This document shows positions 1,659 to 30,308 of a stretch of DNA of 46,725 nucleotides, in pieces; positions within the stretch are counted from its first letter, which is position 1; each line of letters begins with the position of its first letter. The DNA comes from a virus. Lineage: Duplodnaviria > Heunggongvirae > Uroviricota > Caudoviricetes. A model generated the notes under the pieces. The model was not told where the DNA came from. It did no database searches and worked only from the letters and a program-made list of their open reading frames with translations. The DNA lies in the IMG/VR virus record IMGVR_UViG_2684622578_000003. One strand, 5' to 3'. A program made the translations under genes and the position numbers.

Positions 1659-4136
1659 TTAAGAATCAGCCTGACTCGGGATCAGTTTTTGCCAGATAAC
1701 TGAAACGTATTTTGCCTGGTAACGGGCGTCATCAAGTGCATTATGGCGCTCACCTTCGAATGGAATAGCCGTTCTGGCATCGAAGTCTATGGCTTTCCCC
1801 AGCTCAACGATTGTGCGTACATCGCGATCGTTGTAGTAACGCCACGGGCAGGGGATCCCCTGCCGCTCGTATGAACGGCGCAAAATCGTGTTGTCGAAGT
1901 TGGCTCCATTTCCCCAGACCTGAACAAAAAATTCACCGGAGTTTTCGTCGATAAATTCCCGCAATTGTAACAGTGCATCATCTAACGGGATTTCATCGGT
2001 CATAATGGCAGATTGCGCTTCGCGGGATTGCTTAAGCCACCATTTAATGGTGTCCCGATCAATGACTCCGCCAGCAGTTTCCAGATCGATAGTCTTACTA
2101 AATTCCGGTCCCATATCTCCGGTTTGCGGATCGAAAAATATTGCACCTATTGAGATGATCGGGGCATCAGGATTTTTTCCCATGGTTTCAAGGTCGATCA
2201 TTAGATGGTCACACGTCCTGCTGGTGGATGTGATTTCGTGATGACCGTTCACCTTAATTGAGCGATCTGCCGTCTCGCCAGTTTCATTATCGCTATTGTG
2301 ATGCTGATTGCCGCCAGTGTTCTCCTTGTGTGGATGTTCAGCGCCTTCCATTTCCTCCGGATCATCTTCCTGAACTTCAACCTGATACTCTTCATCGAAT
2401 GTTTCTTGGTATGTTGCGTCGCCCATCACCGCGCCACAATCAGGGCAGTTGCCGCCGCCGGTCTGACCGCAGGCGGTGCAGACTTTTTCCACTTCCTGTT
2501 GCGCCACTGGTTCAGGCTGTTTCGTTTCTGGCTCGTTTTGTAACGCATTTGGACTGTTTTGTTCCGCTTTTTGGTAGTTCCGTTCCGATTCATGCTGGTT
2601 CTGGTTCACAGAATCGCGGGTCTGGATCCCCTTAACCCATTTCGGATCATTCGGGTCACTAATCCCTTCAACAAATTCACCACGTGATGCAGCAAGCAAC
2701 TTATCGGCGTCAGGCTGGCTGATATTGGCTGCCTGCATAATTTTGTTTACTTCGTCAGCGGTAACTTTTATCGGCTCTGGTTGTTCTGAATCTTCAGCGG
2801 TATCTACATTTTGCGGTAAGCCCGTGTATGTGCCATTTTTTCGGGCAAAATATTCTTCTTTTGTGATTTCAGTGGCGCCAGCAGCCAGTGCCTTATCCAG
2901 ACCAGAAAGTTTGTTTGCGCGACCGTATTTTTCTCCGTCCTTATCTGCGAAGAGGAAATAGAACGGCCCCTCACGCTCTACAGATGGTTCAGCTTCCGGC
3001 GCGGTTTCATTTTTTGGGATATCAGATACCTCAGTTTCCACTGCATCAGTTTGTGTTTCTGATGACTGGAGAACATCAACAGTGCTCAGGTCTGTTTCTT
3101 CATTCTCAAACACGCCCTTTGTCGTCAGGTATTCGCAGATATATTTGTTCAGTGCTACGGGATCTTTGTGAATGTCGATCGGACGCTCACGGACAAGGCC
3201 AAAAATAGTTTGGCGGTCGTAGCGAAGGGCATCAGGCTGTTTGCGCATTGATGCCGAGATACGCTTCCAGTCTTCGCGGTCGTTGTCGATAACTTCTTTT
3301 TTTGCCCAGCGATGGATGCTGCCGTCAATGTTTCCGGCATCCACATCACCAGGCCAGAGAGCGTAGGCCAGTTCGTCATCCAGTGTTTTCCATGTCTGCT
3401 TGTATTCGCGATGAATGGCAGCAATGACCGGGCTGATTTTTCCTGTTGAATTTTCAGTGTACTGTTGATTGGCTTTGGCGCGGGCGAGATCAACAACAGA
3501 CGTGTATTTTCCGGTTTCCTTGCGTTCACCTTCGCGACGTTTTTTCCAGATGCGCATCTCTGCCTGAATTTCGGGCCATTTAGCACCAGGAATACATTTA
3601 TGCTTAACCCACCCAATGGCGTGCAACTTAAGCTCCGGATACATGGCGTTAACTTCTGGCATTTTCATCAACGCTTCAACGATATGTCCGTCGAATGTTG
3701 CCATGTCTTCCTGCAACAATTCCTGTGCGCTAATAACCATATCAACGGTGATGTTTTCACATGTGTCGAACTTAACCATGACAGCGTTCTGTACTTCAGG
3801 GGCCAGCTTGTCAAAAGTGACGTTCATCGGATCGGATTCAGTCTCAACCGGGACAAAAGAAGCAGACTCCTCATCCCAGCGGTTTTCCTGCATATATTCA
3901 GCATCCCATGAATCGAGGGCAGGGCGGGGTATGCCAGGTTTATCCTCGCAGACAATAAATTTATAAGCGCAGTCCTGAGCAGCCGGATAATGTTCCAGGA
4001 ACTGCCAGTGAAATTTTGCTCGAGCACGGCGTTCGTCGCCAGCTTCAATGGCTGTGGCTACAGCCACAGCCACAGCGCCTTCTTCCCTTGTTGCCAGTTC
4101 GTCAGGAATAGCGGCGCAAATAAAGACTTTACTCAT
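1659..4136 (-). CDS. Large exonuclease, RecE/ExoVIII-like central region with C-terminal DEDDh-type 3'-5' exonuclease signature (full-length ydfE-like)
   Basis: 825-aa ORF; central segment KLLAASRGEFVEGISDPNDPKWVKGIQTRD recalled from RecE; C-terminus has DLETMG ... HNALDDARY motifs typical of DnaQ-like exonucleases; CTACGQTGGGNCPDCG zinc-ribbon-like motif. Confidence 0.7.
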   Translation of the reverse strand: MSKVFICAAIPDELATREEGAVAVAVATAIEAGDERRARAKFHWQFLEHYPAAQDCAYKFIVCEDKPGIPRPALDSWDAEYMQENRWDEESASFVPVETESDPMNVTFDKLAPEVQNAVMVKFDTCENITVDMVISAQELLQEDMATFDGHIVEALMKMPEVNAMYPELKLHAIGWVKHKCIPGAKWPEIQAEMRIWKKRREGERKETGKYTSVVDLARAKANQQYTENSTGKISPVIAAIHREYKQTWKTLDDELAYALWPGDVDAGNIDGSIHRWAKKEVIDNDREDWKRISASMRKQPDALRYDRQTIFGLVRERPIDIHKDPVALNKYICEYLTTKGVFENEETDLSTVDVLQSSETQTDAVETEVSDIPKNETAPEAEPSVEREGPFYFLFADKDGEKYGRANKLSGLDKALAAGATEITKEEYFARKNGTYTGLPQNVDTAEDSEQPEPIKVTADEVNKIMQAANISQPDADKLLAASRGEFVEGISDPNDPKWVKGIQTRDSVNQNQHESERNYQKAEQNSPNALQNEPETKQPEPVAQQEVEKVCTACGQTGGGNCPDCGAVMGDATYQETFDEEYQVEVQEDDPEEMEGAEHPHKENTGGNQHHNSDNETGETADRSIKVNGHHEITSTSRTCDHLMIDLETMGKNPDAPIISIGAIFFDPQTGDMGPEFSKTIDLETAGGVIDRDTIKWWLKQSREAQSAIMTDEIPLDDALLQLREFIDENSGEFFVQVWGNGANFDNTILRRSYERQGIPCPWRYYNDRDVRTIVELGKAIDFDARTAIPFEGERHNALDDARYQAKYVSVIWQKLIPSQADS

Positions 4137-5092: not shown

Positions 5093-5668
5093 TTAAGGAT
5101 TCATTAAGCAATGTCGCAACCACCAATAAATCCGCTTAAGAACATGAAAATTGATTACTGGTATAAAGCGCTTACAGTTGTTGGCGCTGCGTTGTTTGTC
5201 TTTAATGGAACGTCTTTTTTTGACAGATATCCCGTTGTTCCATTGGGTTTTTTGTCCTCCGGCATCTTTTTTATTGGTTTGGGGGAGTGGATTAATCACC
5301 CTCTCAAGGTGAGATTTATTGGTCCTGGAGTTTGGACTCGTGGATATAATCGTTCTTCGTGCGCACTCGGTATCATCTTCGACATACTTGGTTGTTTCCT
5401 GATTGTTACAGGAGTCGTCAAGTTCTTCTGATGTAAAACCGCAAATGGGGCACGTAACGGGAATTTTGAAAAGCGTTTCTCCGGGTTCCAGAACAAAATT
5501 TTCTGCGGTCTGATTTTGCTTCTCATATTTGTGCTCCGCGTCATTGTGAGAGCACATTCTTATTCTGAGTGCCTGTTTAAACTCACTGAAGCTGAGAGCT
5601 TCTTCGCCTTCGGCAAGGCCTTCGAAGTATTCTTCGTAAGCCTTTTCCATGATTGTGTCGAAATCCAT
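5093..5668 (-). CDS. Hypothetical protein of the dicB operon (ydfB/ydfC region), with CPICGF...C motif
   Basis: ORF in operon orientation; AGGTGA RBS before ATG at 5668 (MDFDTIMEKAYEEYF...), start 1 nt after ydfA stop; C-terminal half is low complexity and overlaps an antisense TM-like ORF, so extent is uncertain. Confidence 0.4.
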   Translation of the reverse strand: MDFDTIMEKAYEEYFEGLAEGEEALSFSEFKQALRIRMCSHNDAEHKYEKQNQTAENFVLEPGETLFKIPVTCPICGFTSEELDDSCNNQETTKYVEDDTECARRTIISTSPNSRTNKSHLERVINPLPQTNKKDAGGQKTQWNNGISVKKRRSIKDKQRSANNCKRFIPVINFHVLKRIYWWLRHCLMNP

Positions 5669-8204: not shown

Positions 8205-8606
8205 GTGGCAAAAGTTTTTACACAAGAAGAGCGGGAAAAAATTAAAGGGCAGGTGGTGGAACTCGTGCGCCAGAGTGGTCGTGAGACGTTACGGCAACTG
8301 GAAGCTAAAACAGGTGCGACTAGATATCTGATGAGCGTTCTTGCCAGAGAGCTGGTAGCCAGTGGCGATGTATACAACTCCGGCTACGGGTTATTCCCGT
8401 CTGAACAGGCGCGTAAGGACTGGCAAAACGCCCGCAAAAAACTATCGAGGGCAAAGGTGAAGAAAACAGCTGTGGTTGATCCGGACCTTATCTGGTCGTT
8501 ACCTGATGGAGAAATACGTCGCTACGACAGTCGCCTAAACATAATCTGTCGCGAGTGCCGGATGAGTGAAGTTATGCAGCGCATACTGGCATTTTATCAG
8601 GGATAA
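8205..8606 (+). CDS. Hypothetical protein (GTG start)
   Basis: 133-aa ORF with strong RBS AAGGGGGA 5 nt upstream of GTG; follows the replication gene; no motif recognised. Confidence 0.5.
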   Translation: MAKVFTQEEREKIKGQVVELVRQSGRETLRQLEAKTGATRYLMSVLARELVASGDVYNSGYGLFPSEQARKDWQNARKKLSRAKVKKTAVVDPDLIWSLPDGEIRRYDSRLNIICRECRMSEVMQRILAFYQG

Positions 8607-8788
8607 TGTTAGGTATTTTAGACGTTACTAGATTAAAAAGCATTAGTTCAGGAGTGAATTGACATTCTCATTTTTCATGGCACAGGGTAGATCTGGCGTG
8701 GTTGTCCGCTTTGTGCCAATAGGAGACGCTAGTGACATTATGCTATGTTAACGTATTGCACTAATCCATATTTCGATGGTCAAGATAT

Positions 8789-9259
8789 ATGAAAGTCAGT
8801 CAACTCAAAATCATATCTCACAATGATATATTACCTGCTCTTTTAGGAAGAGTGTTCCATGTTACGCCTGAAAATAATATGTCTCTCATAAAACAGTCCG
8901 GCGCTTTGATCCCAAACTCGGAATTATTGCAGATGTCAAGATTTGGAAACTCATCAAATGGTTTTTTCAGACGGCGTAACTGTGTTTCCTTTTTTGACTA
9001 CAGATGTTATGGGACTAAGCATTGGGAAGAACATGCCTATAAATGTTTTCCAACTCAGTTTATAAAACATGTGCCTAATGATAGAATTTCAATACTATTT
9101 CTTCATGAAAGCAAATTCGATAAATTGATCCCCTGGACTGCATGGAAAGCAGAAGAGGCATGGAGTGATAGGGTGGTCCCATACGTTGAAACTGGATATA
9201 AAGGCATAGTCTCCTTAAGTGAGATTACTGAAGAGTTAATTGTTGGGTTTGACTGCTAG
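8789..9259 (+). CDS. Hypothetical protein, low-GC accessory gene (cassette gene A)
   Basis: 156-aa ORF; about 34% GC over the first 100 nt by hand count, versus about 50% nearby; no motif recognised. Confidence 0.6.
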   Translation: MKVSQLKIISHNDILPALLGRVFHVTPENNMSLIKQSGALIPNSELLQMSRFGNSSNGFFRRRNCVSFFDYRCYGTKHWEEHAYKCFPTQFIKHVPNDRISILFLHESKFDKLIPWTAWKAEEAWSDRVVPYVETGYKGIVSLSEITEELIVGFDC

Positions 9260-9363
9260 CAAAGTCAAAAAATCGCTAACGAATGCAGAAGGTACCTACT
9301 TATGGACCGGTCTTTTATGGTCTGCTTGCCGCTATCTTTAGGCTCATTAAGTGAGACTTTTCG

Positions 9364-10782
9364 ATGACTCCCATTCCGTCTTGTGTATTCGATGTATATG
9401 CCTTATCGCTTCCCCGAGGTCTGGGATTTGGGGATGATCCTCCAGTTAGCGCTTGGGGTAGTCATGATCATGTCACAGTCTGTGCACTGACACGTAATTG
9501 TCACAGCGGAAAGCATGGCATTCTTATAATGCGGCGTCGTGAGGACGATGTATGGGCAGTGCTACGCTGGGAGTCAGATTCATATAGTGAAGAAGAGGCT
9601 TTCACAATTATACGTGAGGCATGCGATGAATCTGCGAGTCGCGTCCCTTTGCCTCCGGGTACACGCAGGCGCGCACCGCTTTGGGATGTTGAAGGTAGAC
9701 AACCAAGTAACATATTCAAACTACTTGGACATCCTTGTAGAGCACCTGGCGCATGGATGCTTAATCAATTGTATCTTGCAATGCCAAATCCGGATACTCA
9801 CTGGGCAAGAGAGTGCCAGACTGATAACTTTCATACACGTATTTGGGAAGCCATGCTCCTGGCCAGTTTCCGTGAACAGGGGTTGTTAGTCACTCAGGAG
9901 TACCCCTCTCCTGATTTTCACGTAATAAACAGGTCAGGTGGAGAAGCCTGGATTGAAGCTGTGACAGTTAATCCATCGGACCGTTACGACCATGCCAGGG
10001 CTGAACCTCTGACGTTTCCTTTAAACCGACAAGACAGGGTATCGGGAATTGCGGCTGAACGTTATGCGCGGACCCTAAGGAATAAACTGCGCAAGAATTA
10101 CACTAGTCTCACTCATGTCGAAGGAAAGCCGTTTGCCATTGCTATCGCGGACTTTCACGCTCCCGGTTCAATGATGTGGAGCCGTGAGGCTCTAATTACC
10201 TATCTCTATGGATTTTATGGAAGAGAAAAAGAAATAGATGGGAAGGTTGTGGCTGTAGCAGAAACTGTCGACTGCCTCAAAAGCGACCCCAAAATCCGTG
10301 CTGGTTTGTTTAATTCACACGATAACATTGCTCTCTCGGCGGTTATTTTTTCTAATTCTGCGACTTTATCCAAGCTGAGCAGAGTACCTGTTTCTTCCGG
10401 CGCCTTGATCAAAGGCTACCGGTACATAAGGATTGGTGAGTTCGCTAATGACTCGGCGGGAGCCTTACGTGGCATCCCCTTCAGTATGGATGTAGCCAGT
10501 GACCAATATCGTCGTCTTTGGGAACCCTATAGTTATGAGCCATGGACTTCAGAAATTGAAATTTTTCATAACCCAAACGCGGAAAACCCTATAAATTCTA
10601 CGCTATTTCCAGAGGCCACGCATTGGCTTCCAGTTAACGGTGAGATAATTTGCAAACGCTTTTTCAAGCAAAGCATTTTAAAAAGCCAAACCATTATTCA
10701 ACACGCAGATGATCCAGTTCCTAATGCAAATAGCCTCACGTTTCAGGAAACTTATGAGGCAGACGATAAATTATTTGACTGA
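9364..10782 (+). CDS. Hypothetical protein (cassette gene B), Trp-rich, no recognisable motif
   Basis: 472-aa uninterrupted ORF 104 nt downstream of gene A on the same strand; about 51% GC over the first 100 nt. Confidence 0.7.
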   Translation: MTPIPSCVFDVYALSLPRGLGFGDDPPVSAWGSHDHVTVCALTRNCHSGKHGILIMRRREDDVWAVLRWESDSYSEEEAFTIIREACDESASRVPLPPGTRRRAPLWDVEGRQPSNIFKLLGHPCRAPGAWMLNQLYLAMPNPDTHWARECQTDNFHTRIWEAMLLASFREQGLLVTQEYPSPDFHVINRSGGEAWIEAVTVNPSDRYDHARAEPLTFPLNRQDRVSGIAAERYARTLRNKLRKNYTSLTHVEGKPFAIAIADFHAPGSMMWSREALITYLYGFYGREKEIDGKVVAVAETVDCLKSDPKIRAGLFNSHDNIALSAVIFSNSATLSKLSRVPVSSGALIKGYRYIRIGEFANDSAGALRGIPFSMDVASDQYRRLWEPYSYEPWTSEIEIFHNPNAENPINSTLFPEATHWLPVNGEIICKRFFKQSILKSQTIIQHADDPVPNANSLTFQETYEADDKLFD

Positions 10783-11304
10783 CCTGCTTGATTCGCACAG
10801 AACGCTGTTAGCAATGTCCGCTCCTCGCTCAAAGCGGACTAGAAGGTTAGCTTGTGTCGGACTTTGCGTATTAAATGACTAGTGGTTGAGCCCCATTTCC
10901 ACAGAAAAAATCAGAGAAACTATACCCAATAGTTGTATTGAATCACTGACGAGACAGCCTCATATTCATCAGGACTGGTGTACGTCCAATACAGGAGGTT
11001 GTGGTGCTGGTTCTCAAATGTGCGCTGGCTATTACGGCTGTAATGGCGATTTATTGTCTTGCTATTGTTCTTATGGATCGCCTTTCTGACTGATTTCACA
11101 TTGGCGAGGTAACGGTAGTTAAGTAGAATGGCTGCGGGTGCTTGAGGCTATCTGCCTCGGGCATGAACACCAACGGCAGATAGAGAAAAGCCCCAGTTAA
11201 CATTACGCGTCCTGCAAGACGCTTAACATTAATCTGAGGCCAATTTCATGCTAGACATATGTAGGTTAGCCTCTTACGTGCCGAAAGGCAAGGAGAAGCA
11301 GGCT

Positions 11305-11460
11305 ATGAAGCAGCAAAAGGCGATGTTAATCGCCCTGATCGTCATCTGTTTAACCGTCATAGTGACGGCACTGGTAACGAGGAAAGACCTCTGCGAGGTA
11401 CGAATCCGAACCGGCCAGACGGAGGTCGCTGTCTTCACAGCTTACGAACCTGAGGAGTAA
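11305..11460 (+). CDS. hokD: Hok-family type I toxin HokD/RelF
   Basis: 51-aa product MKQQKAMLIALIVICLTVIVTALVTRKDLCEVRIRTGQTEVAVFTAYEPEE with a TM helix and conserved Cys; GGAG RBS; followed by a stem-loop and terminator. Confidence 0.8.
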   Translation: MKQQKAMLIALIVICLTVIVTALVTRKDLCEVRIRTGQTEVAVFTAYEPEE

Positions 11461-29892: not shown

Positions 29893-30308
29893 GTTTTGCC
29901 CTGAAACTGGCGCGTGAGATGGGGCGACCCGACTGGCGTGCCATGCTTGCCGGGATGTCATCCACGGAGTATGCCGACTGGCACCGCTTTTACAGTACCC
30001 ATTATTTTCATGATGTTCTGCTGGATATGCACTTTTCCGGGCTGACGTACACCGTGCTCAGCCTGTTTTTCAGCGATCCGGATATGCATCCGCTGGATTT
30101 CAGTCTGCTGAACCGGCGTGAGGCTGACGAAGAGCCTGAAGATGATGTGCTGATGCAGAAAGCGGCAGGGCTTGCCGGAGGTGTCCGCTTTGGCCCGGAC
30201 GGGAATGAAGTTATCCCTACTTCCCCGGATGTGGCGGACATGACGGAGGATGACGTAATGCTGATGACAGTATCAGAAGGGATCGCAGGAGGAGTCCGGT
30301 ATGGCTGA
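29470..30308 (+). CDS. T: Tail assembly chaperone G-T fusion made by programmed -1 ribosomal frameshift
   Basis: Slippery heptamer G GGA AAG at 29868..29874 in the G zero frame; the -1 frame from 29868 is in frame with the T ORF (29919..30308). Confidence 0.8.
29868..29874 (+). other. Programmed -1 frameshift slippery site GGGAAAG
   Basis: Heptamer positioned X XXY YYZ relative to the G frame, 6 codons before the G stop; identical to the lambda G/T slip site as I recall it. Confidence 0.8.

Follow-up and report, generated by a model that had tools for sequence, protein, structure and literature searches.

A probable composite of two independent conflict genes, one of the PD-T7-1 family and one with a predicted DarT-like ADP-ribosyltransferase fold, in a cargo-swapping slot of a Qin-like prophage

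What do the two genes do that separate the replication genes from hokD in a Qin-like lambdoid prophage of Escherichia coli, and do they act together? The question is raised by the virus record IMGVR_UViG_2684622578_000003, a stretch of 46,725 nucleotides (nt) that is called the window here and to which positions refer unless another locus (L number) is named. An original prediction, made from the letters of the sequence, had described a two-gene accessory cassette of defence, abortive-infection or exclusion type, and its two same-strand open reading frames (ORFs) were confirmed as gene A (8789..9259, + strand, 156 amino acids (aa)) and gene B (9364..10782, + strand, 472 aa), separated by a 104-nt spacer. 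Upstream, the prophage backbone carries dicA/dicC-type regulators, a YdaT-family gene, a replication-module gene and a DUF977 gene, and downstream it continues with sok, hokD, rem and ydfU; the sole neighbours of gene A in the window are the DUF977 gene and gene B. Our analysis indicates that this block is probably a composite of two independent conflict genes brought in on one 2.1-kb module in a defence hotspot, with gene B as a putative nuclease of the PD-T7-1/PD-T7-5 family and gene A as a standalone enzyme with a DarT-like ADP-ribosyltransferase (ART) fold.

The position between the replication/DUF977 genes and hokD-sok is a cargo-swapping site. In the Qin prophage of K-12 MG1655 the equivalent position holds relB-relE adjoining hokD, followed by ydfV and flxA, which agrees with the arrangement that the original prediction had given when it proposed cargo exchange at this slot. 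The flanks up to 8728 and from 10809 are common to many Qin-like prophages and to the cultured phage mEp460, and it is the cargo between them that differs. Canonical PD-T7-1 often fills the slot, on the opposite strand (e.g. in L003, where PADLOC finds it at E 4e-157 over profile positions 2-448), and it is also the slot cargo of mEp460 (L077). Phage Tritos (L078) carries the PADLOC candidate PDC-S15 at this place, phage HannyBb (L076) a methyltransferase fragment and a 228-aa unknown protein, strain FDAARGOS_497 (L075) an unannotated 340-aa protein between two intact copies of the hairpin described below, and yet other strains have unknown genes there. Exchange of the cargo, as it had been proposed, is thus borne out by relBE, PD-T7-1, PDC-S15 and further genes occupying one and the same slot.

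In the window the slot is filled by a mobile module of 2.1 kb (8704..10839, + strand), consisting of a boundary element, a gene A mini-module, gene B and a second boundary element. The left element (8704..8727, no strand assigned) is a degenerate copy, here GTCCGCTTTGTGCCAATAGGAGAC, of a 24-nt hairpin of the form GTCCGCT-N10-AGCGGAC, and the right element (10816..10839, no strand assigned) is the intact hairpin GTCCGCTCCTCGCTCAAAGCGGAC; together they make up inverted repeat I1. A 10-mer of the boundary element has three copies in the window, compared to 0.17 expected; the third, GTCCGCTTTG at 30183, has no hairpin partner in its flanking sequence and was treated as unrelated. Elsewhere, the 24-nt hairpin is intact at both cargo ends in L075 (605-628 and 2312-2335 of that locus) and at the left end in L003 and L077, the L003 elements lying at 3305-3328 and 5246-5269. 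It sits inside stretches of 21 bp and 31 bp that are common to the backbone and the module, the length of 31 bp following from the point, 10809, at which prophages with other cargo again match the backbone.

The same module was found, by megablast, in 10 of 5,426 complete E. coli genomes. Two of these ten carriers have it in the DUF977-hokD slot; the remaining eight contain it, about 100% identical, in different islands, either next to a type II restriction-modification (R-M) system beside paoD or next to a helix-turn-helix/ImmA pair and an integrase. The stretch that is shared at about 100% identity with such E. coli islands (L001, L050) runs from 8708 to 10839, and in Pantoea (L016, L014) positions 8704-10839 are kept at 92% nucleotide identity with the same ends. 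The hairpin element accompanies its cargo into unrelated islands and into another genus, and it may be a recombination handle, or a terminator, that defines the hotspot. Defence hotspots and morons are known in temperate phages and satellites, and the P2/P4 hotspots and the lambdoid ren/nin region likewise hold alternative defence cargo at a fixed position in a conserved backbone; the Qin-like slot differs in that a specific 24-nt hairpin brackets it and travels with the cargo. We know of no earlier description of this element. A 22-nt imperfect inverted repeat (73% complementary) was also seen, pairing 9259-9280, just past the stop codon of gene A, with 10846-10867, just outside the right boundary; it could be due to chance or be a trace of the insertion of gene A.

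Gene B can be assigned to a family from its sequence. PADLOC matches it to PD-T7-1 (E 2.8e-69, 232 bits) and to PD-T7-5 (E 2.6e-35), PHROGs places it in phrog_8571 (1.3e-52), and Pfam and NCBIfam have no family matching it. The alignment to the PD-T7-1 profile covers positions 120-447 of 452, leaving the N-terminal part of about 112 aa unaligned, and identity to canonical PD-T7-1 is 29% over aa 110-445 (BLASTP). Colinearity over the full length of canonical PD-T7-1, including its N-terminal 119 aa or so, was thus not found. The layout of gene B comprises an N-terminal domain of beta-sheet and helix (aa 1 to about 110), a predicted PD-(D/E)XK core and a C-terminal beta-rich region, with E162, P183-D184 and E198-A-V200 as candidate core residues, and this E...PDF...EAV core is conserved between gene B and canonical PD-T7-1. 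Structural matches of the central domain are PD-(D/E)XK toxins, restriction enzymes and nucleases (CdiA-CT of Bp1026b, CdiA-CT of EC869, HindIII, NucC and HamA), whose core fold it is predicted to share. The statement of the original prediction that neither gene contains a recognisable motif hence does not hold for gene B.

PD-T7-1, the reference system for this gene (Vassallo et al. 2022; ECOR46 RCQ85672.1), was identified by functional selection in ECOR46 as a single 450-aa gene labelled 'Nuclease'; cloned on its own behind 45 nt of upstream sequence, it gives stronger protection against T-even phages than against T7 (PMC9519451). It was active against a Teseptimavirus in a later study (PMC12409345), and a review places it under PD-(D/E)XK (PMC10952713). 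Gene B shares with PD-T7-1 and PD-T7-5 the nuclease and C-terminal region of about 330 aa, the organisation as a single large protein, the occurrence in prophages and defence islands and, in other strains and in mEp460, the very same prophage slot. It differs in its low identity, its own N-terminal domain and its opposite orientation in the slot. More than 800 relatives of gene B were found; the best 120 are 51-93% identical, and nearly all of these cover at least 95% of gene B. Cultured phages lack the gene B subfamily and have only genes like canonical PD-T7-1, at about 29% identity. By sequence, gene B thus appears to be a new member of a known defence family, one of a large and divergent subfamily in Proteobacteria that has an N-terminal domain of its own. 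The proposed role as defence, abortive-infection or exclusion cargo accordingly stands for gene B at least, by homology to an experimentally validated family. Some database records label B-family proteins 'glycosaminoglycan attachment site' (P0072, H62), apparently a spurious name derived from a pattern.

The start of gene B deserves attention, as RefSeq/PGAP (WP_000934335.1) annotates a protein of 341 aa that begins at 9757. Homologs in many Proteobacteria, which align with 96-100% of the 472 aa, conserve the N-terminal residues, with invariant positions from F9 onward, so that the 341-aa call is a truncation and 472 aa is the correct length. The comparison with Pantoea gives a ratio of nonsynonymous to synonymous substitution rates (dN/dS) of 0.15 for the whole gene and 0.26 for the N-terminal domain. 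The RefSeq truncation leaves 9364-9756 unannotated and creates a false 'intergenic' gap of 500 nt, and these 131 missing codons would mislead anyone cloning gene B.

Gene A, on the other hand, has no match at E <= 1 among Pfam, NCBIfam and PADLOC families or PDB sequences, neither phmmer nor a profile search matches it to a PDB chain, and its match in PHROGs is insignificant (E 0.41). It is clearly AT-rich, with a GC content of 0.376 and 0.350 at third codon positions (GC3), compared to 0.468 for gene B and 0.47-0.48 for the flanking backbone, which substantiates the earlier suspicion that gene A is foreign. A word-indexed search returned 38 relatives, and a full HMMER profile search extended the family to 671 cluster representatives at 50% identity (375 at E <= 1e-10), nearly all 155-185 aa long; ten members, including longer ones of up to 295 aa, have no fused domain in Pfam scans. 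Invariant in close relatives are F23-H24-x-T26, V66-S-F-F-D-Y71, C86-x-P88 and V130-P-x-x-E134. Over 116 sequences down to 24% identity, D70 and E134 remain invariant and F23, H24, T26, I34, L113, P131 and G136 are kept at 90% or more, and the gene is under purifying selection. Two weak leads had been noted in gene A: the FHVT segment is a true motif, as these counts demonstrate, and the Rx5H stretch (RCYGTKH) is not, R72 being kept only in close relatives and H78 varying.

Structural comparison provides a possible identity for this family. The closest structural neighbours of the gene A model are DarT toxins, which have the ART fold; Foldseek recovers the same families with DarT first, and the second match is the uncharacterised mini-ART CC0527/DUF952. 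In the model, the first core strand carries H24, D70 closes the second and E134 opens the fifth, an arrangement that fits the ART motifs. The candidate catalytic residues are H24-x-T26...N30, R61, D70 and E134; among them H24-V-T26...N30, R61 and E134 are present and conserved, with the equivalence of R61, D70 and the substrate (ARTT) loop to DarT deduced from spacing and secondary structure. DarT2 contacts NAD through H13-I14-T15...N19 (PMC9967889), and gene A has the same H-x-T-x3-N spacing. Given this spacing and its position on the strand, the FHVT segment is probably the NAD-binding motif of the ART fold. DarT1 demonstrates that the motif-II tyrosine is replaceable and that catalysis involves an Arg and an Asp (PMC11543638). 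On the strength of the model, gene A represents an undescribed ART family with a DarT-like fold and a conserved H...D...E core, and no description of this family was found in the literature searched.

The DarT toxins of DarTG1 and DarTG2 modify guanine or thymine in single-stranded DNA by ADP-ribosylation, and models of DarT are included in the Pfam, PADLOC and NCBIfam libraries. None of these models reaches gene A at E <= 1, and Pfam scans of the neighbours at the A loci looked at brought up neither a DarG macrodomain nor a NADAR protein, so that gene A falls outside DarT on both counts. It is moreover shorter, with 156 aa compared to about 210 aa, has a much shorter ARTT loop, and carries the invariant Asp (D70) in place of an obvious motif-II Tyr. 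Its sequence relation to CC0527/DUF952 and to Tpt1/KptA is not significant either. Tpt1 is defined by an Arg/His tetrad; hhalign of the gene A profile with E. coli KptA gives a probability of 0.7% and aligns only residues 22-41 of A with 103-122 of KptA, a 20-aa segment that forms the same beta1-alpha1 motif. A fold alone is no proof of transferase activity, the second structural match is uncharacterised, and the canonical Y of H-Y-E is not obvious, all of which would fit a catalytically inactive or non-transferase ART fold that binds NAD+ or ADP-ribose or acts as an NADase without ADP-ribosylating a macromolecule. We give this explanation only a slim chance, since H24, D70 and E134 are invariant or nearly so over about 116 divergent sequences and gene A is under purifying selection, which argues for an active site.

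Whether genes A and B act together was addressed by their distribution. Gene A is followed by gene B only in this module, in E. coli, Pantoea and four IMG/VR prophage contigs, and in a genome collection at species level, 29 further, diverse A loci all lack a B homolog within 6 kb. Relatives of gene A at 72-77% identity follow a satellite-type AlpA/DUF5906 primase in Salmonella and come immediately behind prophage integrases in E. coli and in a Morganella-like contig; another lies in a Citrobacter prophage, and gene B is absent in all cases. More distant A homologs lie after P2-type tail genes (gpU, X, D) and cargo genes, beside a PIN/Phd pair and near a terminase. Conversely, gene B is found at 75-76% identity without gene A in L064 and L074, and B homologs without A also occur in L017 and L019; such A-less B homologs sit in defence islands beside Gabija/OLD-type genes. 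A 143-aa gene upstream of a Burkholderia B homolog was considered as a diverged A and rejected (hhalign probability 0.08%). Genes A and B are therefore not a co-conserved pair and are probably independent, and the two-gene cassette of the original prediction, if read as such a pair, was not upheld, the linkage being confined to this recent module.

The boundaries of homology further suggest how the two genes came together. Homology (78%) with loci that have A without B (L069, L056) extends over 8736..9264 on the + strand, i.e. gene A with 53 nt of its own upstream sequence, and ends 5 nt past its stop codon. The A-less B loci L064 and L074 are homologous from 9342-9344 onward, so that within the A-B spacer (9260..9363, + strand) the last 20 nt or so (9344-9363) are the conserved leader of gene B. 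In L074, the left boundary half-element recurs over 18 nt without a mismatch and is followed by the B leader with no A between them. As L074 represents the cassette without A, and as the step in GC content agrees with these limits, the hairpin-B-hairpin cassette appears to be the older unit, into which gene A came as a mini-module.

The history of gene B within the module points in the same direction. It was disrupted independently at least three times with gene A intact, by IS3 at 9434-9436 in four genomes (L050), by IS911 in the middle of the gene at about 10197 in strain CH4799 (L081) and by a frameshift in Pantoea (L014/L015), and altogether it is inactivated in five of the ten E. coli carriers and in some Pantoea. 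Gene B may hence be costly to the host. Its repeated destruction next to an intact gene A implies that B is not an antitoxin for A and that A does not need B. These results make it quite unlikely that A and B form one functional two-gene system, in which, for example, the ART modifies or licenses the nuclease or both act sequentially on phage nucleic acid. Such a system would agree with the same-strand arrangement and with the identical boundaries under which the pair is kept in E. coli islands, IMG/VR prophage contigs and Pantoea. It is contradicted by the relatives of about 75% identity that are unlinked, by the single-gene activity of PD-T7-1, by the difference in GC content and by the B cassette without A in L074. 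The spacer shows no terminator-like site and, on the + strand, no promoter-like site; counts in these promoter and terminator scans were no higher than in shuffled sequence and are therefore uninformative on co-transcription.

If gene A encodes a toxin, an antitoxin would be expected nearby. To our knowledge every characterised DarT needs an antitoxin that removes its modification, and DarT, the closest structural relative of A, is itself the toxin of a toxin-antitoxin (TA) module, so that an antitoxin of A might have been overlooked as a small ORF, as an RNA in the 53-nt leader or the spacer, or as gene B itself. Some A homologs are indeed tightly preceded by a gene (130 aa in L004, 282 aa in L006). 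Clustering of the neighbours at 36 non-redundant A loci nevertheless yielded no recurring partner family, their all-against-all BLAST returning nothing but shadow ORFs antisense to A itself and matches between sister genomes, and the region has no repeat array resembling an RNA antitoxin, only a two-copy 13-nt repeat inside gene A. Together with the missing macrodomain or NADAR partner, the end of the mini-module shortly after the A stop codon and the loss of B beside an intact A, this renders a TA module very improbable.

A third alternative is that gene A serves the phage, as a host-takeover or counter-defence ART during lytic growth comparable to Alt, ModA and ModB of T4. Modification of host proteins by phage ARTs is well documented (PMC9503650), an antitoxin would then not be needed, and a place in the early region of a lambdoid prophage, past the replication genes, would suit such a role. 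We regard this as unlikely in view of where gene A is found. It is absent from 50,697 cultured phage genome records and present in 9 of 2.9 million viral contigs, most of them with this same module; in plasmids, only two partial Vibrio matches were obtained. Many homologs are chromosomal, in non-phage contexts beside TA or defence genes, and the module itself also occurs in a non-prophage island by an R-M system. Overall, A homologs occupy cargo positions of prophages and satellites and places beside TA, Gabija or Hachiman genes. Among 150 neighbours of A scanned in bulk with Pfam and PADLOC, Gabija lies directly downstream in two Pseudoalteromonas loci, and HamB, PIN, HipA and MADS were also found.

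Two further observations on these neighbourhoods were made. A homologs (L035, L047) and, separately, B homologs (L017, L019, L074) adjoin pairs of a Gabija/OLD-type ATPase-nuclease and a UvrD helicase. Proteins with DUF2971 lie close to A homologs in two unrelated loci (L072, 4657-5385; L009, 8106-9068), the L072 copy matching the PADLOC candidate PDC-S31 (2e-97).

Taken as two independent genes on one module, the block would have arisen and would operate as follows. The module recombined into the defence hotspot of the Qin-like prophage, in a slot bounded by short hairpin-containing sequences that are common to the backbone, gene A probably having entered the older cassette upstream of B as its own mini-module. 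Gene B would act as a single-protein anti-phage nuclease, its N- and C-terminal domains sensing or binding an infection cue or nucleic acid and its PD-(D/E)XK core cutting nucleic acid, by which phage replication would stop. Gene A would use NAD+ to ADP-ribosylate a target in the phage-host conflict, most likely nucleic acid as DarT does. As it lacks an antitoxin, it would have to be specific for a non-host (phage) substrate or be held inactive until infection; an infection-specific substrate, autoinhibition or a role for the phage are all possible reasons why this toxin-like gene is tolerated. Several points weigh against this account. The best structural match of gene B is a tRNase toxin, only 72% of the PD-T7-1 profile is matched, and the ExK motif reads E-A-V with the lysine missing at its canonical position, which makes the nuclease activity and its substrate, DNA or RNA, uncertain. 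The residue equivalences between gene A and DarT come from spacing and secondary structure and from no superposition, and the neighbours of A also include housekeeping genes. Moreover, A and B lie close together on one strand with no terminator between them and have been kept together at 92% nucleotide identity across genera, and for this reason a functional interaction within the module is possible.

Besides the module, two features of the backbone were recorded. The Rfam sok model RF01794 matches 11136-11310 (112.7 bits), upstream of and overlapping the mok/hokD frame, and the hok/sok type I TA system beside the slot thus looks complete. The DUF977 gene (L002, 8806-9231) is annotated as frameshifted in both genomes that have the exact slot arrangement (WP8-S18-CRE-02 and GSH8M-2); its counterpart in the window is a 133-aa ORF at 8205-8606.

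For the A family as a whole, we tentatively propose, as a possible but doubtful generalisation, that it consists of undescribed, widespread (about 670 clusters at 50% identity), minimal and antitoxin-less DarT-like ARTs, each acting alone as an effector of phage defence or counter-defence on a target, either nucleic acid or protein, that occurs only in the course of infection. A DarT-like fold of 156 aa without a partner, found in cargo positions of prophages, satellites and defence islands, raises the questions of what its target is and how self-toxicity is avoided, and gene A is small, easily cloned and directly testable. The hairpin-bounded junctions provide a sequence handle with which further cargo can be found in lambdoid prophages. 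Gene B extends the validated, mechanistically unexplained PD-T7-1 family, and comparison of its subfamily with canonical PD-T7-1 could reveal which part of the protein senses infection.

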